The notes below the pieces were generated by a model. It was given only the letters and a program-made list of their open reading frames with translations, was not told the origin of the DNA and searched no databases. This document shows positions 5,246 through 15,300 of a stretch of 32,000 bases of DNA, one piece after another. The stretch covers positions 630,001 to 662,000 of the forward strand of contig OY970322.1 of NCBI GenBank assembly GCA_963716945.1, written 5' to 3'. Within the stretch, counting starts at the first letter, position 1. Each line of letters begins with the position of its first letter. A program made the translations under genes and the position numbers. Source of the DNA: Candidatus Saccharimonadota bacterium (GTDB lineage Bacteria > Patescibacteriota > Saccharimonadia > Saccharimonadales > UBA4665).

Positions 5246-5527
5246 AATAAAGCAGATACCTATAAGCCCTAGCTTAGGCTAGCGGTTCGCAGCCTTTCCT
5301 TGCTTCAACATGTTAACTATACAGGCAGAACGAAACGTCAGGCAATGCTGCCGGTGCGCGGGCACTGCCAGCTTTAATTTACTCTGCGGGTTCGGACTCT
5401 AGGAGGTGGGCTACGACTCTATGCGTAGTGAATAATCTAGTTCCGAAGTCTTTTCTATCGGTGTCGTGAACGCCAAGCTTTCCTGGCTGCGAACAATAAA
5501 GTCTTTGTAAATAATAAAAGGCTTAGT

Positions 5528-5977
5528 TTAACGGCCGATACTTATCATTTGGCCGGCCCCCCACTCGTTTAGGCCGTCTGCCGGCGCTACGCCCATAACA
5601 CTCTCTATACTTCCCGACGGGCCTCTTAATAAAGGCCGAAGCTCCGGTTCGGCTAAGCTTACGTCACCCCCAAGAACCATGGACCAAAATACCTCTTGAG
5701 CCAAACGCGCCCCGTGCATTACCTCGCCCAAGGCGCTTGGGGCTGTCCTTTCGGTATAGGTCTCACCCATTACCGGCACCTGTAGGTAAATTATATCTCG
5801 GAGGAGGGCCTCGCCAATGTAGGGAGGTGAAGTGTCTGCGTAGGCCGGTGCTATGAACCGTACTCCTTCATCCGGCCTTAACCAAGTATCGCTTTGAGCA
5901 TGCAAGCCTGCAGCCGCTTCGGCCGCATCATGCGTAAAGCCTTCTGGCGGGGAAATGCCCTGGTAAGAAACTCCCAT
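5528..5977 (-). CDS. Hypothetical protein (149 aa)
   Basis: ORF with ATG 5977 placed 6 nt after an extended -10 box. No family recognised. Confidence 0.65.
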   Translation of the reverse strand: MGVSYQGISPPEGFTHDAAEAAAGLHAQSDTWLRPDEGVRFIAPAYADTSPPYIGEALLRDIIYLQVPVMGETYTERTAPSALGEVMHGARLAQEVFWSMVLGGDVSLAEPELRPLLRGPSGSIESVMGVAPADGLNEWGAGQMISIGR

Positions 5978-6657: not shown

Positions 6658-7155
6658 TTAGCTTTGGATTTCCCGTAGCAGCTTATCGCCCACGTTATTC
6701 GTAAAGCCAAGCTCCCGGTATAAGGGTATTAAAGTATTGGTTGGCGCTAATTCCGTAGCTAATCGCTTAGCCCCAAGGGCATCGGCAATCCGAACCCTTT
6801 CCCGAACTATAGTTCTGGCTAAGCCTCTATGCCTATGCCGAGGACTTATCATTAAGTGGCTCAATTCGCCAAAGACGGTTATATGTTTCAACGTTAACAG
6901 CCCTATACCGACAAGCTCGTTCTCGTTTGAGGTTCTTACCCCTACTTCAATAATATGATCCCCATAGATATCAGGACTTCCAGAGGGCCAACTGGCGCGA
7001 TCAAGCCCAGAGCTAGATGGTCCGTTCACTTCCTCGTCGAGTGTACGCAGCTCTTCTCTTCCGGCTTCTGCACCGCTTGCAAAATAGTAACCGACCGGCA
7101 GCTCCAGCCGGTTATAGGTAACTGCAACCTCCGGGCTGATAGCAAGCTGCGCCAT
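6658..7155 (-). CDS. GNAT family N-acetyltransferase
   Basis: The acetyl-CoA binding motif A is MISPRHRHRGLARTIVRERVRIADALG, followed by LYRELGF. I place the start at ATG 7155 (MAQLAISPEV), directly downstream of a promoter module. Confidence 0.85.
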   Translation of the reverse strand: MAQLAISPEVAVTYNRLELPVGYYFASGAEAGREELRTLDEEVNGPSSSGLDRASWPSGSPDIYGDHIIEVGVRTSNENELVGIGLLTLKHITVFGELSHLMISPRHRHRGLARTIVRERVRIADALGAKRLATELAPTNTLIPLYRELGFTNNVGDKLLREIQS

Positions 7156-7194
7156 AATAAACAAAATAATACCACAAAAAGCATTATTTGCATA
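7156..7194 (-). promoter_or_regulatory. Cassette promoter module
   Basis: The minus strand reads TATGCAAATAATGCTTTTTGTGGTATTATTTTGTTTATT-ATG. The TATTTT at 7168-7163 lies 7 nt before ATG 7155. Confidence 0.5.
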
Positions 7195-7205
7195 GGGCTT
7201 ATGCT

Positions 7206-7229
7206 TGGCTCCCGGACTGGATTTGAACA
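7206..7229 (-). repeat. Displaced copy of the tRNA-Asn 3' end (T-arm plus acceptor plus CCA), att-like direct repeat
   Basis: TGTTCAAATCCAGTCCGGGAGCCA aligns with the tRNA 3' end GGTTCGAATCCAGTCCCCGGAGCCA (12878-12854) at 21 of 25 positions, in the same orientation. There is no matching tRNA 5' half upstream. Confidence 0.7.
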
Positions 7230-7299
7230 AATTAAAATAGGCCTGAAATTGGTAAAGAGCTCAACAAGCCATAGGTACATGGCATTATAAGCCAAAATA

Positions 7300-7314: not shown

Positions 7315-8655
7315 ATGTACCGCCCAGACTTTACAGACTTTGCCCCATATCAGGGTGCGCCTAATGCCGCCGTCGTATCAGGTTTCATTAATTATGGTGC
7401 CAACCACGAGGCAAAAACTGTCCTCAGCGACGTTTATTTGCAGCAGCCAGGCGAGCTGTTGCGCCCAGTAACGGTAGCTAAAACCGTTATCGCCTGGCAA
7501 GGACCTGAGCCCGCGTGGAAGATACCCATTAAAGACGTTATCCAATACAGTGAGCGCAGTTTGGCAAAAGGCGGTATCGTCGAGCCTGGTTTAATCGATG
7601 GTGAACGCGGTCATCAAGTTACTGCCTGGGCAGCAATGGCAAGCCCGGCTGATTTACTGGTGCAGCGGGCCATGGTTGGCTTTTTCAGTAACTGGAGTCT
7701 CGAGTCACCCGAACAATCGGTGCAAAAACTTTATAGGGTTGGCGGTGGTGATCGTGCAAAAGCGCCACTAGTCAGACACCGGCTATATGATTTGCTCTGG
7801 AATAGCACTACTGGTTACTCAATTGAAGGCCTCAACGAAGTCATGGTAAGAGAAGGCCATCACCCAACAACACTGGCAAGGAAGCTTGAGGGTCTGGACC
7901 AGGAAGGGATTATAGAAGTTCGGTCGAAAAGCATCGGTTACAATCCTGTCATGAAAGTCACCGATAGCGAATACCGCCACGTAGCGATCGGCTTCTTAGA
8001 CACTAGCTTGGAAACGCAAGCAGCATATGCTGCCGCTCAAGAACTTGGCATCGACGCCACCATAACTGTTGACGACTTTGTTAATAAGGCTATGGAACAA
8101 ATGCCCGGTGCTGACCCAGTAGTATTACGCAAGTATATAATCGGCAGTTTCAGCGAGGGAACCAATCACTTCCCTGGCTTGCAGCCTGTCGATAGGTTGG
8201 GCATACCGATTTCAGATCTCAGTGTTGTCGAGCTATCTCCTGACGTGCGTCAGGCTGTTGGCGAGCTTGTAATTGGCGTGGGCAAAATTTTAGCCGGCGA
8301 AGGTCTGCTTCCTTATGTTAAGGAAGCGCAAAGAATTATGGGTAACCCCTCGCAAGTGCGCGAGCTAATTGCTAAAGCCGGTAGGTTTTCGGCTGTAAAG
8401 GCTGGGCACTTTCATGGCAGTGAGCGGCTGACTAATCAAATGAGAAGCATTTTGGAAACCGGGCCACAGACTGCTGAGAGTATGAGAGCCGAACTAGTAG
8501 ATCGGTACGGCCGCATGATCGGTCATGAGAGAATACACGCCATTCTGAATGAGCTTGTTAGTACCGAAAACATAGGTACTGCCTATGAACCTGTCCATCC
8601 TCATTCGGCTATCACGCGTAAGGTCTACAAAATGCAGGCTCAGCAGGAAAGCTAG
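7315..8655 (+). CDS. Hypothetical protein (446 aa) with two winged-helix-like segments
   Basis: Long clean ORF. The segments RHRLYDLLWNSTTGYSIEGLNEVMVREGHHPTTLARKLEGLDQEGIIEVRS and QMRSILETGPQTAESMRAELVDRYGRMIGHERIHAILNELV resemble wHTH layouts by eye. No catalytic motif recognised. Confidence 0.75.
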   Translation: MYRPDFTDFAPYQGAPNAAVVSGFINYGANHEAKTVLSDVYLQQPGELLRPVTVAKTVIAWQGPEPAWKIPIKDVIQYSERSLAKGGIVEPGLIDGERGHQVTAWAAMASPADLLVQRAMVGFFSNWSLESPEQSVQKLYRVGGGDRAKAPLVRHRLYDLLWNSTTGYSIEGLNEVMVREGHHPTTLARKLEGLDQEGIIEVRSKSIGYNPVMKVTDSEYRHVAIGFLDTSLETQAAYAAAQELGIDATITVDDFVNKAMEQMPGADPVVLRKYIIGSFSEGTNHFPGLQPVDRLGIPISDLSVVELSPDVRQAVGELVIGVGKILAGEGLLPYVKEAQRIMGNPSQVRELIAKAGRFSAVKAGHFHGSERLTNQMRSILETGPQTAESMRAELVDRYGRMIGHERIHAILNELVSTENIGTAYEPVHPHSAITRKVYKMQAQQES

Positions 8656-8704: not shown

Positions 8705-8734
8705 TGGCTGCCTTTAGTGGACGCACTTCGCAGC
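8705..8734 (-). repeat. Cassette 3' element copy
   Basis: The minus strand reads GCTGCGAAGTGCGTCCACTAAAGGCAGCCA and starts 20 nt after the stop of 8755..9465. It aligns with the copies at 12354-12325, 11919-11889 and 10178-10150. Confidence 0.5.
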
Positions 8735-8754
8735 TTACGTCATGAGTAACCGGA

Positions 8755-9465
8755 TTATCGTGAGGCGATTATCAGTAGACTACCGGCATGACCGCCTAAT
8801 TTTCTTATTATGTCTTCGTGCCTTTCGGCGTTAGTATCGTCGGGCTCGCCAGCTTCGATATCAAATTGAGCCTCGCGCGAAGCGAAGCGCGGCCTTAAGC
8901 CGGCCATCTTTAACATCTCGGCTATGGCTTGGGCATTTCTATCGTAATCAAAAATTACGGCCCGGCCGTCCGGAGCAAGCAGCCTGGCGACTTCGTTGGT
9001 CATAACCTGCTCGTCATGATTATGTTCGCAGCTCGGAGCGGATGATTTATCGTATACGCGGGAAATGTAAACTTCGTTAGCGATCGCGCCGGGCAGGCCA
9101 TACCTTAAATTTTCCTCGGAGGGGTCGTCTAAGTTTCTGCCAAATGACCTTTCCCGTTGGAGGGTTATATTTTCGCCGGCTCTCTGACTTCGCAATCTCT
9201 CAAAAGCGACTTTCGCTCCGAGTTCGTAGTATCCGAAGCTGAAGTTCTCCAGACCTATATAGCGACTTAGCCCGCCGAAATTACGGTTTAAACCGTTGGG
9301 ATGCATGCCGGGACCTATTTCAACCAGGCACCAGACCGGTGCGGCTACTCTGTATTCGGCGTACTCGAATGGATCGATGAGATCGCTTGGATTTATCTCA
9401 AGCGCTTGCCTAATTCCTAATTCCTTGTCGACCGGATTCAAAGCCGCAACCCCAGGCGTTGACAT
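8755..9465 (-). CDS. Probable class I SAM-dependent methyltransferase
   Basis: LVEIGPGMHPNG is motif-I-like, and VARLLAPDGRAVIFDY fits the later MTase strand. I place the start at ATG 9465 (MSTPGVAAL), 6 nt after the module -10. Confidence 0.65.
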   Translation of the reverse strand: MSTPGVAALNPVDKELGIRQALEINPSDLIDPFEYAEYRVAAPVWCLVEIGPGMHPNGLNRNFGGLSRYIGLENFSFGYYELGAKVAFERLRSQRAGENITLQRERSFGRNLDDPSEENLRYGLPGAIANEVYISRVYDKSSAPSCEHNHDEQVMTNEVARLLAPDGRAVIFDYDRNAQAIAEMLKMAGLRPRFASREAQFDIEAGEPDDTNAERHEDIIRKLGGHAGSLLIIASR

Positions 9466-9500
9466 AAACATAAAATACCACAAAACGTGGTATTTGTATA
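9466..9500 (-). promoter_or_regulatory. Cassette promoter module with a perfect 9-bp inverted repeat
   Basis: The minus strand reads TATACAAATACCACGTTTTGTGGTATTTTATGTTT-ATG. The arms AAATACCAC (9495-9487) and GTGGTATTT (9481-9473) are exact reverse complements separated by 5 nt. Confidence 0.55.
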
Positions 9501-9525
9501 GTGATTATGCTTGGCTCAAGATATA

Positions 9526-9561
9526 GGTCTGGGCTAGCTGCCTTTACGTCCCTGGCGCGCC
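9526..9561 (-). repeat. Cassette 3' element, variant copy
   Basis: The minus strand reads GGCGCGCCAGGGACGTAAAGGCAGCTAGCCCAGACC, downstream of the stop of 9581..10042. It shares TAAAGGCAGC..CAGACC with the 8705-8734 copy. Confidence 0.4.
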
Positions 9562-9580
9562 TGATGATTACGTATAGGTA

Positions 9581-10042
9581 CTATTGTACCGGCGGCCAGA
9601 CTTGTTCGGGGTCTCCTTCAATTCGAGCCATAAGTACTTGGTCCATTCCTTGATAGGTTATGCAAGTACTACCGTGAATCGGAAAAGTCGTAAGTCGATC
9701 CCAAGGCATATCAGCCAACTCCGCCGCTCTAGCCAGATGCTCATCCGGACCATAGTCTGATTGTATAAATTCCGCCTTCCATCCTATTTCTCGAGCTACA
9801 CTCTCCAGCGCTTTAGCAAAACCGCCGATTTTAGGCGTAATAAATTCCAAGTTTCTAAAAGCGGCAACAGCAAGCGATGTTTTTATAAGTTCGGCGTTTG
9901 GTAGCCTATCTTCTCCGTTGTCAGTATGGATTTCCAGGATTGCCTTGGCCCACCAAAGTCCTATAGCCTCATATACATCCTTGGCTTCCCCTACGGGCTT
10001 AAGGACTTCTCGTCCGCCTTCAAATCTTGCATCCGCAGCCAT
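9581..10042 (-). CDS. Hypothetical protein (153 aa)
   Basis: ORF 9581..10051 in the track. I place the start at ATG 10042 (MAADARFEGG), downstream of a consensus promoter. Confidence 0.7.
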   Translation of the reverse strand: MAADARFEGGREVLKPVGEAKDVYEAIGLWWAKAILEIHTDNGEDRLPNAELIKTSLAVAAFRNLEFITPKIGGFAKALESVAREIGWKAEFIQSDYGPDEHLARAAELADMPWDRLTTFPIHGSTCITYQGMDQVLMARIEGDPEQVWPPVQ

Positions 10043-10080
10043 AATTATCATATTATATAAAAAACTTCAATAATTGTCAA
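10043..10080 (-). promoter_or_regulatory. Consensus sigma70-type promoter
   Basis: Minus strand: TTGACA (10080-10075), 17 nt, TATAAT (10057-10052), then 9 nt to ATG 10042. Confidence 0.6.
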
Positions 10081-10149
10081 TAATTAAAGGGTAAGATAAA
10101 AAATCCGGCAGCGTGAATGCGGACCGGGTGTTTCGTCGAGTTTGCGATG

Positions 10150-10178
10150 CGGCTCCCCCAGTGGGTGAGCTGCGCAAT
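10150..10178 (-). repeat. Cassette 3' element copy
   Basis: The minus strand reads ATTGCGCAGCTCACCCACTGGGGGAGCCG and starts 3 nt after the stop of 10182..11048. It can form the hairpin GCTCACCC-ACT-GGGGGAGC with one mismatch. Confidence 0.5.
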
Positions 10179-10181
10179 AAC

Positions 10182-11048
10182 TTAGTAAATGGACGGGATT
10201 GCGCGGGCCTGCTCGATTCTATCGATCGCTACTTCGGTACTACCGTCCCAGAAGGCTAGGAGCATTGGCATAATGCTGCCACGCCATCTAACTCCTAGGC
10301 GAAGTGTTGGACAGCCGCTGCCCGAGCTGCATTCTTTGGCCTTTTGTTTGGCCCAGGGCGTTAGATCTACGCTTTCTTGGCGGGCATCTAATACTAAATG
10401 CTCGGGATCTATGACATCATTTGCTCGAGATTCACTCATCAGCCTAGAAGGTATGCCGACAAACTTGCTAAATTCAGGCCGGCCGGGTCTTCCCTCGACA
10501 GTGTCATTTATCATCGCCAGACGAGATATTAATCTGCTGCTATTCCTGACAATTTGTTCATTGGCCGACTGCTCGTAACCACTGTCTTGTAGAAGAAAAT
10601 TAAATATGCTCCGTATAGCTAAATTGGCATCCTGCACGGCTGCACTAGCATTGCGCAGGCAGCCTCTCGCGATGCGGACAGCCTGCTGCTGCGTCGCATC
10701 AATGGAGCCTGCCATGGCCTCCCGGAACGGATTAGTCAATCCATTATCAATTGGGTCCGGAAACCGTCCAAAATAGTAATAATCCCTGCCCATCTCCATC
10801 CAGATAGGTACATATTGGTTCGCAGCTGCACTAGTAGAGCGGCTGAAAACATGATCACTTTTAGACACCGACCTAGCAAGCTCTGACGCAACAGCATAAC
10901 CTAGGGGAGCTAACATGTACGTATCAAAGTCTGGGTAAAGCCGGCCTATTGCATGAGGAGTAGACTTGGCATCTGCTATTCTTTGTTCTAGGTCGTTAGA
11001 AAAAGCTTCTGAGTCAGCAGCTTCTTGCATAAACGCTTCGAAAGCCAT
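10182..11048 (-). CDS. Hypothetical protein (288 aa)
   Basis: ORF 10182..11066 in the track. I place the start at ATG 11048 (MAFEAFMQEAADSE), 6 nt after the module -10. Confidence 0.7.
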   Translation of the reverse strand: MAFEAFMQEAADSEAFSNDLEQRIADAKSTPHAIGRLYPDFDTYMLAPLGYAVASELARSVSKSDHVFSRSTSAAANQYVPIWMEMGRDYYYFGRFPDPIDNGLTNPFREAMAGSIDATQQQAVRIARGCLRNASAAVQDANLAIRSIFNFLLQDSGYEQSANEQIVRNSSRLISRLAMINDTVEGRPGRPEFSKFVGIPSRLMSESRANDVIDPEHLVLDARQESVDLTPWAKQKAKECSSGSGCPTLRLGVRWRGSIMPMLLAFWDGSTEVAIDRIEQARAIPSIY

Positions 11049-11083
11049 AAAAATAAAATACAACAAAAAGCAGTATTTGACAA
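11049..11083 (-). promoter_or_regulatory. Cassette promoter module
   Basis: Minus strand: TTGTCA (11083-11078), 17 nt, TATTTT (11060-11055), then 6 nt to the ATG. It is preceded by AGCC and then GGGAGCCA (11095-11088). Confidence 0.55.
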
Positions 11084-11230
11084 GGCTTGGCTCCCATGAC
11101 GTTGATCAATTGGGACCAGATTAAGTCAGAAATAATAGAGATGTGTCGGGTAGTTAAAACTTCACAGCAGTTTAATATTAAAGAAGCTGAGGGCCGTGGC
11201 TAGAATCCGGGTAAGTATTCAGAGCCGAAG

Positions 11231-11812
11231 TTAAGAACCTACAACTTTACCCGTGCAAATGTTTCTATATTGGCTGGGATTAAAAGTCTGTCCATATTGC
11301 GGGAAATACCATTCAACAGCGTTATAGGACGGTTTGCCCTGGCACATACCTAGATTGAACGCTACGACAGTTGCTTGTTCTGTAGTGCCATCGGCCACAT
11401 CTTCATTACCCATTACGTAGTCAGTCATTCCTGTGCCTGTAGCCTGTGTGCCTCCCCATGACTGCCAGGTTATATTAGTGACTATGCCAGTGGGGTCACC
11501 TCCATTATTGATTATTTGAGGCTTCACGGTGCCGTAACCTTGCTGACCCGTGTCAGGCGGCCCCCATAGCTGCCCAAGTACAGGACTTGGCGTGTTAGTT
11601 GTTGTGTCTGAGCCCTTCTCTGCAGTATTAGAATTGTTGCTGGCAGTAGCCCGCTTTTTGCTTGTAGTTGTAGCGGTTACTGAAATAGGACTTGTTTTGC
11701 GGTCTTTTTGATAAACGTACCAGCCAGCGCCTATTATAAGAACAAGCAGAGCTATTATTGATAAAATGCTAACAACTCCGAAACCTTCTTGTTTACTGTG
11801 ATGTTTGCCCAT
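11231..11812 (-). CDS. Membrane-anchored exported protein (193 aa), unknown function
   Basis: It has an N-terminal TM helix (GFGVVSILSIIALLVLIIGAGWYVY) followed by a Thr/Ser-rich linker. A -10 TACTAT (11825-11820) lies 7 nt before ATG 11812. Confidence 0.75.
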   Translation of the reverse strand: MGKHHSKQEGFGVVSILSIIALLVLIIGAGWYVYQKDRKTSPISVTATTTSKKRATASNNSNTAEKGSDTTTNTPSPVLGQLWGPPDTGQQGYGTVKPQIINNGGDPTGIVTNITWQSWGGTQATGTGMTDYVMGNEDVADGTTEQATVVAFNLGMCQGKPSYNAVEWYFPQYGQTFNPSQYRNICTGKVVGS

Positions 11813-11888
11813 GTCATTTATAGTATCAAACGACCATACTGCAATTGAACCGAATAAATTCCTAGAGATTAATAGAGGCGAGCTTTCC

Positions 11889-11919
11889 TGACTCCCTCCT
11901 AATGGACGAGCTGCGCAAC
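11889..11919 (-). repeat. Cassette 3' element copy
   Basis: The minus strand reads GTTGCGCAGCTCGTCCATTAGGAGGGAGTCA and starts 22 nt after the stop of 11942..12280. Confidence 0.5.
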
Positions 11920-11941
11920 TTTTGTGAAGCAGAATTCATTA

Positions 11942-12280
11942 TTAACTTACATCTGGTGAATGAGGAGGTTCAGGTGCATCAGCAGCATCGAGCAAACGAT
12001 TAAGCTGGTTAATACTTTCTTGTGAACTGAGTCGCTCGATTGCCTCAATGGCAGATTCACCGGTTTGCAAATCTGTTTTTCTATATGGACAAGCCAAGCA
12101 GCCTAGAGTTAAAGCGAGTGTGGCCCTTTGATAATCCGCACTCATTTCGTTATAAGTTATTTCAAAGCCGGTAGGGTATTTGGCACAGACCATATTACCG
12201 TTTGCATTAGAGTATGGTCTTTGTACTACGGCACGTACTTGACAAGTGTCAAACGCTTTTTGAGAGCGACTTTTTTTCAC
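11942..12280 (-). CDS. Hypothetical protein (about 112 aa). The start is ambiguous: GTG 12280, or the conserved ATG 12284, which is out of frame.
   Basis: The ORF body is in the track (11942..12301). The module-positioned ATG 12284 is in the +1 frame relative to the body, across an A7 run (12277-12271). GTG 12280 is the first in-frame start after the promoter. Confidence 0.55.
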   Translation of the reverse strand: MKKSRSQKAFDTCQVRAVVQRPYSNANGNMVCAKYPTGFEITYNEMSADYQRATLALTLGCLACPYRKTDLQTGESAIEAIERLSSQESINQLNRLLDAADAPEPPHSPDVS

Positions 12281-12284
12281 GCAT

Positions 12285-12320
12285 AAAACTAAAAATATCA
12301 CAAAAAGTGATATTTGACAA
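12285..12320 (-). promoter_or_regulatory. Cassette promoter module with a perfect 9-bp inverted repeat
   Basis: Minus strand: TTGTCA (12320-12315), 17 nt, TGTGa-TATTTT (12297-12292), then 7 nt to ATG 12284. The arms AAATATCAC (12315-12307) and GTGATATTT (12301-12293) are exact reverse complements. Confidence 0.55.
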
Positions 12321-12324
12321 GGTA

Positions 12325-12354
12325 TGGCTCCACCTAGTGGACGAGTCTCGCAAC
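12325..12354 (-). repeat. Cassette 3' element copy ending in tRNA-like GGAGCCA
   Basis: The minus strand reads GTTGCGAGACTCGTCCACTAGGTGGAGCCA and starts 10 nt after the stop of 12365..12814. The next promoter module follows after 4 nt. It contains the hairpin TCCAC-TAG-GTGGA. Confidence 0.55.
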
Positions 12355-12364
12355 TGCCAAGTTT

Positions 12365-12814
12365 CTAATATTCTGCTGTTTCATCCTGCGGGAATACCGC
12401 CTTCAATCTTTGAAGAAGAAACCATGCTCGTCTGTCGTCAATGAAATCAGAAAAAGTGCTATTGCAATCCTCATCCATTTCGTCATAGTGCACCCTTCCG
12501 TCATCTTTCAGCGTGATGTGTCCTTCGGCTATTTCATCGTCATGCAGCGAAAGCTGGGCTATGTCGTGATTATTGTAATCCAAAGCCTCGGACGTCTCGG
12601 TCATTAGATAAAATGCATAACGTTTCTGCTCGGGAGCAAATGCCAATCCCGCCAATAGTTTAGGCCGTAACGGCTCAAGTAATATATCAGCTATTCTAGT
12701 GCCAAAGTCTCCCGTGCGGGTTTGGGGATGCTCAAGTGCATTAAATAGGACGAAGTTTCTAAGATCCTGAAGATAATCGCCTTCAAAACGGGGAGCTTCA
12801 TAGACATCCGGCAT
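12365..12814 (-). CDS. Hypothetical acidic protein (149 aa)
   Basis: ORF with ATG 12814, 6 nt after the module -10. It is the first gene after the tRNA. Confidence 0.7.
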   Translation of the reverse strand: MPDVYEAPRFEGDYLQDLRNFVLFNALEHPQTRTGDFGTRIADILLEPLRPKLLAGLAFAPEQKRYAFYLMTETSEALDYNNHDIAQLSLHDDEIAEGHITLKDDGRVHYDEMDEDCNSTFSDFIDDRRAWFLLQRLKAVFPQDETAEY

Positions 12815-12849
12815 AAAACTAAAATACCATAAAAAGTGATATTTGGCAA
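12815..12849 (-). promoter_or_regulatory. Cassette promoter module abutting the tRNA
   Basis: Minus strand: TTGCCA (12849-12844), 17 nt, TATGg-TATTTT (12826-12821), then 6 nt to ATG 12814. The -35 box begins only 4 nt after the tRNA CCA end. Confidence 0.55.
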
Positions 12850-12853
12850 TTTA

Positions 12854-12928
12854 TGGCTCCGGGGACTGGATTCGAACCAGCGACCTAGGCGTTAACAGCG
12901 CCCCGCTCTACCGCTGAGCTACCCCGGA
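12854..12928 (-). tRNA. tRNA-Asn (anticodon GTT), 75 nt, CCA encoded
   Basis: I folded it by hand. The parts are: acceptor TCCGGGG/CCCCGGA, D-arm GCTC-AGCGGTA-GAGC, anticodon arm GGGCG-CTGTTAA-CGCCT, variable AGGTC, T-arm GCTGG-TTCGAAT-CCAGT, discriminator G, then CCA. Confidence 0.93.
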
Positions 12929-12975: not shown

Positions 12976-14235
12976 ATGCTCTTGCTGAAGACCGCGCGGT
13001 TTGTTGGTACAATAATTAATGCTATGCAGGATGACGCGCCGAATCCGCCGCCAGATGAACCGACCGTTGAGCCCGTCGACGAACCGACAGACGAAACCGG
13101 CAAATCCGCGGTTACGCCCTTGCCCGGGCCGCAAGAAACGCTACCGGTTCCGGCGCCCAAACCGCCGCGCAACTGGAAGCGATGGCGCAAAGTAGCGGGC
13201 CTCGTAGTTCTGATTATTATCGTCGCGGTTGGGGCCTGGCTGTGGGGCCGGCATGGCGGCCCGCCCAAAAAAGCCGCTTCGACGGCCAGCCAAGCCGTAA
13301 CGATGCCTAAGAAAACTGCGGCGGCTGCGGCCAAAGTCCAAGGCGTCCAGCTCGACCCGAACAAGGATTACGGCAACAAATACGCCAACGGCATCCTGCC
13401 CGTCGGTGACGGCAAATACGTTACGTCCGGCCCTAAGCAGGGCTATGTCTATGCCTGCAGCCAGTATGCCCAGAACCTGTCCGGCGGCCAGGGCGGCGCC
13501 AGTACCCGCGGGCCGTGGTTCACGGATAATAACACCGAGTATAACGTCAACGAGAAGCTGCATGTCGAGGGCAGCGTCATGTGGCAGGCCAGCTTTTCGG
13601 ACGTCCTGTCCGGCGGTACGCGGACTATCATTACTAATGATTTGCCCGACCACCCGACCGGTATTTTCCCGATTATGACGACCGACCCGGCCTACGCTTA
13701 TGACCACAACCCCAATACCATTAAGGGCCAGACCCTGACCTACGTCCTCAATGCCGACCCGGTTTACGGTTCGCCCAGCTGTATGGGCGGCGAATCGGGC
13801 ATCATGCTGACCGGCGTGGCGCTGTTTAACGCCTTTGATGCCGGCGGGCGTGACGCCGGGGCCTGGGAAGTCCAGGACGCGTGCGACGGGCATCCGCAAA
13901 CGGACGGCATTTACCACTACCATACCTTGAGCGCTTGCATCAAAGACACCAGTGTCCGGACCGTCATCGGCTATGCCCTCGACGGCTTCCCGATTACCGG
14001 GCCGGAGGTCGGGCCGAATAATATCCTGACGACGTCGGACCTCGACGAGTGCCATGGCCTGACCAGCCAGATTAACCTCGACGGCAAGCTGGTTACGATG
14101 TACCACTATGTCATGACGGAGGATTTTCCGTACTCCGTCAGCTGTTTCCGCGGTACGGCTATCCAGCCGCCTGACCTGGCGCTAGCCCGGCCAAGCCAGT
14201 CCGGCCAAGGGCAAAAGGCGCCGCCTAAGCCTTAG
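12976..14235 (+). CDS. YHYH-motif protein, membrane-anchored (alternative start ATG 13024)
   Basis: It has a Pro-rich N-terminus, a TM helix (VAGLVVLIIIVAVGAWLW), and then the signature DGIYHYHTLSAC plus a second MYHYVMT. A possible TTGAAC-17-TTAATA promoter lies at 12936-12964. Confidence 0.8.
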   Translation: MLLLKTARFVGTIINAMQDDAPNPPPDEPTVEPVDEPTDETGKSAVTPLPGPQETLPVPAPKPPRNWKRWRKVAGLVVLIIIVAVGAWLWGRHGGPPKKAASTASQAVTMPKKTAAAAAKVQGVQLDPNKDYGNKYANGILPVGDGKYVTSGPKQGYVYACSQYAQNLSGGQGGASTRGPWFTDNNTEYNVNEKLHVEGSVMWQASFSDVLSGGTRTIITNDLPDHPTGIFPIMTTDPAYAYDHNPNTIKGQTLTYVLNADPVYGSPSCMGGESGIMLTGVALFNAFDAGGRDAGAWEVQDACDGHPQTDGIYHYHTLSACIKDTSVRTVIGYALDGFPITGPEVGPNNILTTSDLDECHGLTSQINLDGKLVTMYHYVMTEDFPYSVSCFRGTAIQPPDLALARPSQSGQGQKAPPKP

Positions 14236-14760: not shown

Positions 14761-15300
14761 GTGAACCGTATATTCGCTGAGACCGCAGACTATGCCCGGG
14801 CCGAGTTAATCGATGTTATGTCAGGCGTAGTAACGCGGTTTCCTAGCCTGCGCCATATAAGCGAGAATCTTGATTCGCCTTCTCACGTTTCGGCGCGCTG
14901 GCGTCATTCATCAGTCCCGGCCGCGGCGATTACGAACTGGGTAAGCTACGCGGGTATTGCTGAGTCCGGCCGGCGACCCAAGGACTATCCGGAAGCCGCT
15001 ATACTGGGGATTTCGAAAGAAGAAGTCGATGCTTACGCTGCTGAACATGGCGGCCAGCACGCCGTCGCGTATGTCCTGGGGAGCCGGGTCATTATAGGTA
15101 CCATGCTAGAAGATGAAATCTTCGGCGTCAGTGAGGATGGCGAGCAATACAGAGTGGCGATGGGTATCGGCAAGGGTGTCCTCCAGGCTACGGCCGGGCT
15201 GTACCTACCTCATAAAAGGCTGTGGGTACCATCAGCGCCGATTGAGGATATGGGACGAATGCCGGCTGACCAGGTTCCAGTCACCGTTCCCTTCCTTTAA
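14761..15300 (+). CDS. Hypothetical protein (179 aa)
   Basis: The ORF has a GTG start 6 nt after TATAAT (14749-14754). No family recognised. It ends 4 nt from the convergent hydrolase gene. Confidence 0.55.
   Translation: MNRIFAETADYARAELIDVMSGVVTRFPSLRHISENLDSPSHVSARWRHSSVPAAAITNWVSYAGIAESGRRPKDYPEAAILGISKEEVDAYAAEHGGQHAVAYVLGSRVIIGTMLEDEIFGVSEDGEQYRVAMGIGKGVLQATAGLYLPHKRLWVPSAPIEDMGRMPADQVPVTVPFL

Follow-up and report, generated by a model that had tools for sequence, protein, structure and literature searches.

We describe a DNA element of about 30 nucleotides (nt) that recurs between the genes of an island directly downstream of tRNA-Asn in a 32,000-nt stretch of a Candidatus Saccharimonadota genome (contig OY970322.1, positions 630,001 to 662,000; the whole stretch is hereafter called the window, and features are given in its coordinates). 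Taken together, our analyses make it probable that this element is the P arm plus the crossover core of the attachment (att) site of large serine recombinase (LSR) elements that insert at the 3' end of tRNA-Asn.

The four copies named in the initial annotation (e1 to e4 in the feature list below) were recovered at their positions on the minus strand. A degenerate pattern covering all of them matched four times in the 32 kb versus 0.23 matches expected, and four or more matches occurred in 0 of 100 shuffles; an independent repeat search placed window copies in the repeat families D3 and D6. A profile built from the element copies of other genomes re-identified those at 12355-12325 (E 2e-7), 11922-11895 (E 6e-5) and 8732-8715 (E 3e-3), and missed the more diverged copy at 10178-10150. 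All four lie within a low-GC island directly 3' of tRNA-Asn(GTT) (12928-12854, minus strand), the only tRNA of the window. The 8 kb that follow this gene have a GC content of 43-50%, as opposed to ~58% in the core of the window (13-32 kb), which includes smpB and the ATP synthase operon. Given this confinement, no spread of the kind expected of repetitive extragenic palindromic (REP)-like sequences was observed.

The copies begin 10, 22, 3, and 20 nt past the stop codons of the open reading frames (ORFs) at 12365-12814, 11942-12283, 10182-11045, and 8755-9465, respectively. Their location 3-22 nt after ORF stops, as first reported, is therefore correct but incidental, since related arrays have copies upstream of reverse-strand gene starts. 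Likewise, the tRNA heptamer GGAGCCA, thought to end every copy, is exact in the copy at 12325, whereas the other three read GGAGTCA, GGAGCCG, and GCAGCCA. The pattern search, the repeats and the promoter scan agreed that the copy at 12325 abuts a promoter module just as the tRNA end does. This module consists of TTGnCA, 17 nt, TGnTATTTT, 7 nt, and ATG, a layout that implies leaderless mRNAs. Five module copies alternate with elements, a further one lies at 1465-1503 on the minus strand, and GGAGCCA stands directly before a module at four places (the tRNA end, e1, 11088, and 7206). Within the module spacer is a palindrome showing co-variation among copies (AAATATCAC/GTGATATTT versus AAATACCAC/GTGGTATTT), and the module resembles the terminator region of tRNA-Asn in other species.

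Outside of the window, the element forms a family with the consensus AGTTGCGAAG-NN-CGTCCACTAG-N-GGGAGCCA. One genome per species was scanned with a strict pattern, metagenomes were scanned separately, and a profile hidden Markov model (HMM) was run on the collected loci. The genome scan yielded 45 loci, ~35 of which were from Saccharibacteria and the rest from Omnitrophota, Planctomycetales, Prolixibacteraceae, and one Paceibacterota contig. With the strict pattern, no genome had more than one locus, including those with contigs of 0.7-1.9 Mb. The metagenomes contributed at least 120 further stretches with the element. The profile HMM detected at least one copy in 156 loci, of which 37 hold two to five and none is strand-mixed, and copy-to-copy spacing was 235-2086 nt among the arrays listed. 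tRNA-Asn accounted for 33 of the 38 tRNAs in element loci, and in 31 of the 33 loci with that tRNA the element was located 277-9579 nt downstream of it on the same strand. With one locus per genome and this tie to tRNA-Asn, the element does not behave as a generic signal after genes, which the initial annotation had named as the outcome that would speak against a recombination site.

A homologue of the first cassette ORF of the window (ORF1, ~90% DNA identity) was found on the metagenome contigs L002-L004 within a different array. That array has six element copies (consensus GTTGCGAAGCTCGTCCACTAGGGGGAGCCA), two of which are upstream of reverse-strand gene starts; the element thus tracks cassette borders and not mRNA 3' ends. 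Two loci of Omnitrophota are also of note. In a chromosome (L035, 3382-3880, minus strand), two small element-bounded cassettes have no tRNA-Asn within 1 kb upstream, and one of the copies there, a long form of 48 nt, contains an insertion of 19 nt (GTTGCGAAAC-TTCATTATGGTGCGCTTTG-CGTCCATCTCGGGGAGCCA). In a metagenome-assembled genome (L047, 360-760), tRNA-Asn was missed by ARAGORN and is split by a group I intron in the anticodon loop (Rfam, 72 bits); a small cassette ending in the element comes after it.

Judged by its sequence, the element derives from the 3' end of tRNA-Asn, of which it is a copy altered by an insertion of 5-6 nt. The clean tRNA-Asn 3' end in L038, AGTTCGAATCCAGTAGGGGGAGCCA, comprises the T-loop, T-stem, acceptor strand, discriminator G, and CCA. 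Adding one G, a 5-nt insertion (GNNCG), and one substitution to this tRNA end gives the canonical element, AGTTGCGAAG-CTCG-TCCACTAGGGGGAGCCA; variants that keep AGTTCGAAG were found in L007, L026, and L031. CGAA and GAGCCA are 20 nt apart in the element and 15 nt apart in the tRNA. Rutherford et al. 2013 (PMC3783163) reported that attB and attP of serine integrases differ in the placement of the zinc-ribbon-domain motif, attB having it nearer to the crossover by 5 bp. The left arms match this published geometry, with the tRNA end as the B arm and the element carrying the distal motif 5-6 bp further outward. True tRNA-Asn 3'-end remnants that do not have the 5-nt insertion also occur within islands (7206-7230 in the window, ~2741-2756 in L049, and 3219-3243 in L038).

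Comparisons between loci placed the cassette borders at the 3' end of the element. A toxin-antitoxin cassette common to L005 and L018 (~89% identity) has its homology confined to the interval between GAGCCA and GAGCCAT: it begins right after the GAGCCA of two different upstream elements and stops right after the GAGCCAT of the cassette's own degenerate element. In more than ten other locus pairs (from ~170 loci), homology stops 0-3 nt from the element 3' end in both partners. Between the ORF1 cassette of the window and L002, homology stops at GGAGCCATACYT, 3-5 nt past GGAGCCA, and on the 5' side starts only ~15 nt inside the ORF. Island content also differs between close relatives. Specifically, L125 has smpB and the next gene 89-90% identical to those of the window and an identical tRNA-Asn, and its island holds four or five cassettes of the same architecture, none of them common to the window. 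L174 is syntenic with the window from smpB to the ATP synthase operon and has nothing in common with it downstream of the tRNA, where a recombinase island is found instead. The cargo of the arrays consists of typical accessory genes, including toxin-antitoxin pairs, Fic proteins, acetyltransferases, methyltransferases, and hydrolases.

Among the first 46 loci, ORF clustering, Pfam searches of 145 neighbouring ORFs and motif regular expressions revealed no recurring recombinase, and IS transposases only. In the larger set that included the metagenome stretches, two loci, L057 and L103, each encode a 492-aa LSR with the domains Resolvase, Recombinase, and Zn_ribbon_recom (63% mutual identity). 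Both genes lie directly 3' of tRNA-Asn on the opposite strand, their last codons overlapping the tRNA, and the element follows 9.1 kb (L057) or 6.2 kb (L103) downstream, after which comes a tRNA-type terminator flank. A protein search retrieved 1251 relatives at E<=1e-30. Three of these, inspected on long contigs (L173, L174, and L175/177/178), repeat this layout, the element lying 5.5, 9.0, and 8.8 kb away on the downstream side. In 67 of 122 homologues the C-terminus reads WLRxLxSNQ, which is the tRNA end translated in antisense. One homologue, P0088, ends instead in WLPLVDALRN, which is the antisense of the element. It is encoded on a 5.9-kb contig (L170) along with Rep (REP_ORF2-G2P), four cargo genes, and one intact site, in which a canonical element is joined to the recombinase 3' end. 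Another, P0113, is encoded on L171 and L172, which are circular permutations of one ~4.1 kb circle with Rep and LSR and have a 30-nt terminal overlap.

Four forms of the site can be distinguished: attP (element/recombinase arm), attB (tRNA/terminator flank), attL (tRNA/recombinase arm), and attR (element/terminator flank). All of them were observed and, as read from their sequences, they are mutually consistent. attP was seen in L170 and in the L171/172 circle, attL and attR were seen in L057, L103, and L173-L175, and the attB-type flank AGCATAAGCAC.. follows tRNA-Asn in L020 and elements in L008, L027, L034, and L057.

The recombinase ORF spans the crossover point (L057 7842-9320, L103 5175-6653, L170 1193-2692), so that its tail reads ..W-LPLVDxLRN on the free element and, after integration, ..W-LRRLDSNQ(Q/R)P, the antisense of the tRNA. 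In about nine homologues of greater divergence, the tail corresponds to a different tRNA (WLGRRDSNPR). As for cargo, the island of L173 (2787-8470) contains a restriction-modification pair (DNA methylase and MvaI_BcnI), with a reverse-transcriptase gene (RVT_1) just beyond the distal element, and the cargo of other recombinase islands includes a UvrD/PLD-type helicase-nuclease (in L174) or genes of the AAA/DUF2130/GIY-YIG types (in L057), a composition that suggests a defence role. Two pattern scans of IMG/VR viral contigs for a phage attP gave no match.

We propose the following scheme on the basis of these forms. The free form would be a small Rep-encoding circle in whose attP the P arm adjoins the recombinase gene at its 3' end, and the recombinase would swap strands within GAGCCA against the identical core at the acceptor/CCA end of the tRNA. 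After integration, an intact tRNA would abut the recombinase gene (attL) and the P arm would be found at the far border of the insert, beside the former tRNA flank (attR). Since serine integrases tell attP from attB by spacing, the distal GTTCGAA motif, 5-6 bp further from the crossover in the P arm, could serve this distinction. We infer that the LSR catalyses recombination on these sites; the homology breakpoints fall within GAGCCA(T), and the exact crossover dinucleotide would presumably be found there. The initial annotation had favoured a recombination site that has the tRNA end as its partner. This reading is upheld by the tRNA ancestry of the element, its linkage to tRNA-Asn, the GAGCCA breakpoints, and the linked recombinase and att forms, but its analogy to attC sites and hairpins is not.

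The window island would accordingly represent a stack of at least six to eight units, each made up of a gene, its leaderless promoter, and a P arm, and all of them devoid of a recombinase. We infer that the stack grew as units were inserted one after another at the tRNA by site-specific recombination, or else through accretion combined with partial excision, with the recombinase acting in trans or in the past. The features of the island are as follows.

12976-12948, minus strand: promoter of tRNA-Asn, TTTACA-17-TAGAAT (promoter scan).
12854-12928, minus strand: tRNA-Asn(GTT), whose 3' end GGTTCGAATCCAGTCCCCGGAGCCA would be the chromosomal (B) arm of the att site (ARAGORN; Rfam tRNA, 69 bits).
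12815-12853, minus strand: junction and promoter module 1, TTGCCA-17-TG-TATTTT, 7 nt, ATG, predicted to drive leaderless ORF1 (repeat family D1, pattern search, promoter scan).
12365-12814, minus strand: cassette ORF1, 149 aa, no family match (ORF call).
12325-12357, minus strand: element e1, GCAGTTGCGAGACTCGTCCACTAGGTGGAGCCA, a near-canonical putative P arm ending in exact GGAGCCA (pattern; profile E 2.3e-7).
12284-12324, minus strand: promoter module 2, TTGTCA-17-TG-TATTTT (repeats, pattern search, promoter scan).
11942-12283, minus strand: cassette ORF2, 113 aa from ATG (ORF call).
11889-11922, minus strand: element e2, AAAGTTGCGCAGCTCGTCCATTAGGAGGGAGTCA (pattern; profile E 6e-5).
11231-11812, minus strand: cassette ORF3, 193 aa, with its own TTGCAG/TATAAA promoter (ORF call, sequence reading).
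11088-11110, minus strand: putative degenerate copy ATTGATCAACGTCATGGGAGCCA, which ends in GGAGCCA (11088-11094) and abuts module 3 (assigned as a copy by sequence reading).
11046-11087, minus strand: promoter module 3 (repeats, pattern search, promoter scan).
10182-11045, minus strand: cassette ORF4, 287 aa (ORF call).
10150-10178, minus strand: element e3, ATTGCGCAGCTCACCCACTGGGGGAGCCG, diverged (pattern, repeat family D3; no profile match).
9581-10080, minus strand: cassette ORF5, 156 aa, with a perfect TTGACA-17-TATAAT promoter (ORF call, promoter scan).
9512-9561, minus strand: rearranged degenerate copy ..ACGTAAAGGCAGCTAGCCCAGACC..TTGAGCCA (sequence reading, repeats D1 and D5, pattern search).
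9466-9511, minus strand: promoter module 4, which follows the 9512-9561 copy with a typical AGCATAA junction (repeats, pattern search).
8755-9465, minus strand: cassette ORF6, 236 aa (ORF call).
8705-8734, minus strand: element e4, GCTGCGAAGTGCGTCCACTAAAGGCAGCCA, diverged (pattern, repeat family D6, profile E 3e-3).
7315-8655, plus strand: reverse-oriented cassette gene, 446 aa, no family match.
7206-7230, minus strand: true tRNA-Asn 3'-end remnant TGTTCAAATCCAGTCCGGGAGCCA, a B-type arm without the insertion (sequence reading, repeats, GGAGCCA search).
7153-7205 and 6658-7152, minus strand: downstream of this remnant, AGCATAAGCC.., promoter module 5 and a GNAT gene, respectively (sequence reading, repeats).
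5473-5495, minus strand: possible truncated relic TTGTTCGCAGCCAGGAAAGCT after the ORF at 5528-5977, a weak candidate from sequence reading alone.

The variant at 9561-9526 and the relic at 5495-5473, both pointed out in the initial annotation, are plausibly degenerate copies of the element. Copy quality falls from proximal to distal in the window and shows no such decay in L042 or L125; this gradient was not used as evidence.

Several observations weigh against the proposed scheme. The recombinase is absent from the 32-kb window and from most of the arrays examined, so that LSR activity on the window array is putative. Three of the four named copies of the window (all but e1) are diverged and may be inactive. 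The sequences to the right of the elements are poorly conserved, and the 5-bp relation was seen on the left arms; any dyad symmetry also appears weak, with a TTGC(G)AA-like motif recognised by eye on both arms of the L170 attP. The internal tRNA remnant at 7206-7230 is unpredicted by a simple attP x attB scheme, and such remnants may derive from a second kind of integration or from homologous exchange. A terminal-overlap check of the contigs gave the L171 plasmid only and no single-cassette circles, and circularity was shown for L171/L172 and not for L170. Finally, canonical serine integrases recombine attP with attB, and not attP with attL or attR, so serial stacking at one tRNA needs an extra assumption. 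Either the tRNA arm would stay a target whatever lies to its right, or the recombinase modules would be lost after each integration, or the stack would grow by accretion and partial excision via the outer sites.

The system resembles the known serine integrases (Listeria A118/LI, Bxb1, phiC31) in the Resolvase, Recombinase, and zinc-ribbon composition of the enzyme, in the conversion of attP x attB into attL and attR over a short core, and in the distal motif of the attP half-site, which lies ~5 bp further from the crossover than that of attB (PMC3783163). Those systems target protein-coding genes, whereas insertion here is at the very 3' end of a tRNA gene, a sequence that the P arm evidently copies; in addition, the recombinase ORF extends across the crossover, and the right arms are poorly conserved. 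Also, the elements are carried in bacteria of the candidate phyla radiation (CPR), either on Rep plasmid-like circles of 4-6 kb or as islands of 5-9 kb, and tandem recombinase-less stacks are unexpected under strict attP x attB recombination.

A more far-reaching possibility, which we put forward tentatively and consider rather doubtful, is that the system is a serine-recombinase counterpart of the integron in Saccharibacteria and some Omnitrophota, Planctomycetota, and Bacteroidota. The 3' end of tRNA-Asn would be a permanent capture site for which small Rep plasmids supply the recombinase in trans. Recombinase-less single-gene cassettes, made up of a gene with its leaderless promoter and a pseudo-tRNA P arm of 30 nt, would enter and leave this site, accumulate in stacks, and be exchanged. 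Because recognition would rely on the conserved tRNA arm, the site could be reused after every insertion. As in integron arrays, a fixed site gathers same-orientation, mostly single-gene accessory cassettes that end in a recombination-site repeat. On the other hand, the enzyme is a serine and not a tyrosine recombinase, there is no folded attC, the crossover position differs, the cassettes are self-promoted, and no integrase gene lies beside the platform. If recombinase-less cassettes do move in trans, an enzyme class other than that of integrons would underlie an integron-like platform here, and the reduced genomes would have a dedicated gene-acquisition platform.

It is also conceivable, although we regard it as unlikely, that the copies are inert scars: full-size recombinase elements would have integrated repeatedly and later lost recombinase and Rep by ordinary deletion, so that nothing acts now, and cassettes would spread by natural transformation and homologous recombination over conserved junctions. 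The absence of a recombinase from the window and most arrays and the degenerate state of several window copies are in line with this. Promoter modules are more alike within an array than between orthologous cassettes of different arrays, a hint of additional homologous exchange; together with the start of ORF1 homology ~15 nt inside the ORF, this likeness suggests homologous exchange or gene conversion. Saccharibacteria are also reported to be naturally competent (PMC10187176). However, many internal array copies are near-canonical across species and even phyla, which neutral scars would not be, and the breakpoints lie a few bases from GAGCCA on both cassette sides, which is sharper than expected from recombination over junctions of 30-80 nt. 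Sites of an LSR at tRNA-Asn remain our preferred reading.

The initial annotation had held in reserve an RNA element at mRNA 3' ends, i.e., a tRNA-like acceptor minihelix ending in GCCA with a function in processing, stability, or termination. This now appears very improbable, even though copies usually follow a stop codon, have a tRNA-like ending, fold in some variants (-11 kcal/mol for the CTC variant and -16 kcal/mol for e3), and are followed by an intrinsic terminator in many species. Those terminators are displaced tRNA-Asn terminators (AGCATAAGCAC plus a hairpin, as after the tRNA in L020), and a terminator scan found none at e1-e4, in agreement with the earlier remark that the copies are not intrinsic terminators themselves. 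Among the eight variants folded, the commonest reached -4 kcal/mol, worse than its shuffles (z +1.2). Across 94 distinct copies, pairing was found in 76.1% of cells versus 75.9% in shuffles, with one compensatory cell, and two of the seven pairs were broken in 65 and 57 copies. The hairpin drawn for each copy in the initial annotation is thus not conserved, and the pair counts gave no covariation. Rfam searches (17 sources at gathering thresholds, and L035 with permissive ones) detected tRNAs and one group I intron only, and no family matched the element. Both the copies upstream of reverse-strand gene starts and the restriction to one locus per genome further argue against an RNA function.

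An integron-type attC, folded as single-stranded DNA and used by a tyrosine integron integrase with the tRNA end as attI, can practically be dismissed. Same-orientation repeats do part mostly single-gene cassettes with diverse accessory cargo and the element does start with GTT, but there are no inverted-repeat arms or conserved hairpin, the borders are at the 3' GAGCCA and not at a 5' G/TT (GTTGCGA fails the RRR of GTTRRRY), no tyrosine recombinase is found near any of the ~170 loci, cassettes have their own promoters, and the linked enzyme is an LSR acting on double-stranded sites; the attC-like label of the initial annotation was dropped on these grounds. A coding role of the array copies was rejected because the length of the G-run varies; the forward frame ends in TAG, and the open reverse frame, WLPLVDVLRN, is the recombinase tail in the attP state. 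A dif/Xer-like site was rejected by eye, with no XerC/XerD-type arms present.

Other mobile elements share parts of this organisation. The staphylococcal cassette chromosome (SCC), moved by the Ccr serine recombinases, targets the 3' end of rlmH/orfX and forms tandem composite islands with direct repeats between units, some of which have no recombinase. The likeness consists in a serine recombinase acting at the 3' end of one conserved gene and in composite islands with site repeats, whereas here the gene is tRNA-Asn, the phylum and the repeat are different, and the units are mostly single genes (0.25-2 kb) with their own leaderless promoters. In the accretion-mobilisation of cis-mobilisable elements (CIMEs) by streptococcal integrative and conjugative elements, att-flanked units without a recombinase lie beside the site of an autonomous element, and tyrosine integrases and conjugation are involved. 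Recombinase-less att-flanked units could similarly move in cis here via the outer att sites, although no link to transfer machinery was found in our loci. In the tycheposons of Prochlorococcus, tyrosine recombinases are present in 910 of 937 elements (bioRxiv 10.1101/2020.12.28.424599). As in those, elements with replication genes insert at a tRNA, older material is pushed distally, partial tRNA copies separate the units, and the resulting islands are hypervariable even when close relatives are compared. The repeats of tycheposons are unmodified partial tRNAs, in contrast to the conserved modified copy found here, and regular single-gene cassettes of the present kind are not described there. 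The hallmark genes of tycheposons were absent, a serine recombinase and a Rep of the REP_ORF2-G2P family being found instead. The general traits of a tRNA-proximal additive island were present, i.e., a location 3' of the tRNA, tRNA-derived repeats, hypervariability, and autonomous elements with integrase and replication genes at the same site.

A full-text literature search found no description of this element or recombinase family, and the serine integrase family linked to the element is apparently undescribed. Saccharibacteria and other CPR bacteria have genomes of ~1 Mb, and little is understood of the ways in which they gain and exchange accessory genes. Our findings point to tRNA-Asn as one conserved hotspot that would be served by a specific serine integrase family on tiny Rep plasmids. 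With a signature of 30 nt, cassette arrays, and hence the flexible gene pool, can be delimited automatically in metagenomes. The att pair is also legible, attP being the target with its distal motif moved by 5 bp, and so provides a natural illustration of attP/attB discrimination. Moreover, the enzyme and its sites are a candidate orthogonal integrase/att system that could serve as a genetic tool for CPR bacteria.

Two further observations concern the genes in and around the island. The reverse-oriented cassette gene of the window (7315-8655, plus strand) and one in L002 (1911-3206) encode proteins of 430-446 aa with 21% identity (E 2e-12) in opposite orientations. This protein family had no Pfam, NCBIfam, or PHROG match, and by eye its members look like proteins with several winged-helix domains. 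Compared with L125 and L174, the window has extra genes at 12976-14235 and 14761-15300 (both plus strand), which occupy the interval between smpB and tRNA-Asn (a YHYH-domain protein) and that between smpB and the next conserved gene. From this gene order, the upstream side of tRNA-Asn is likewise seemingly not fully stable.

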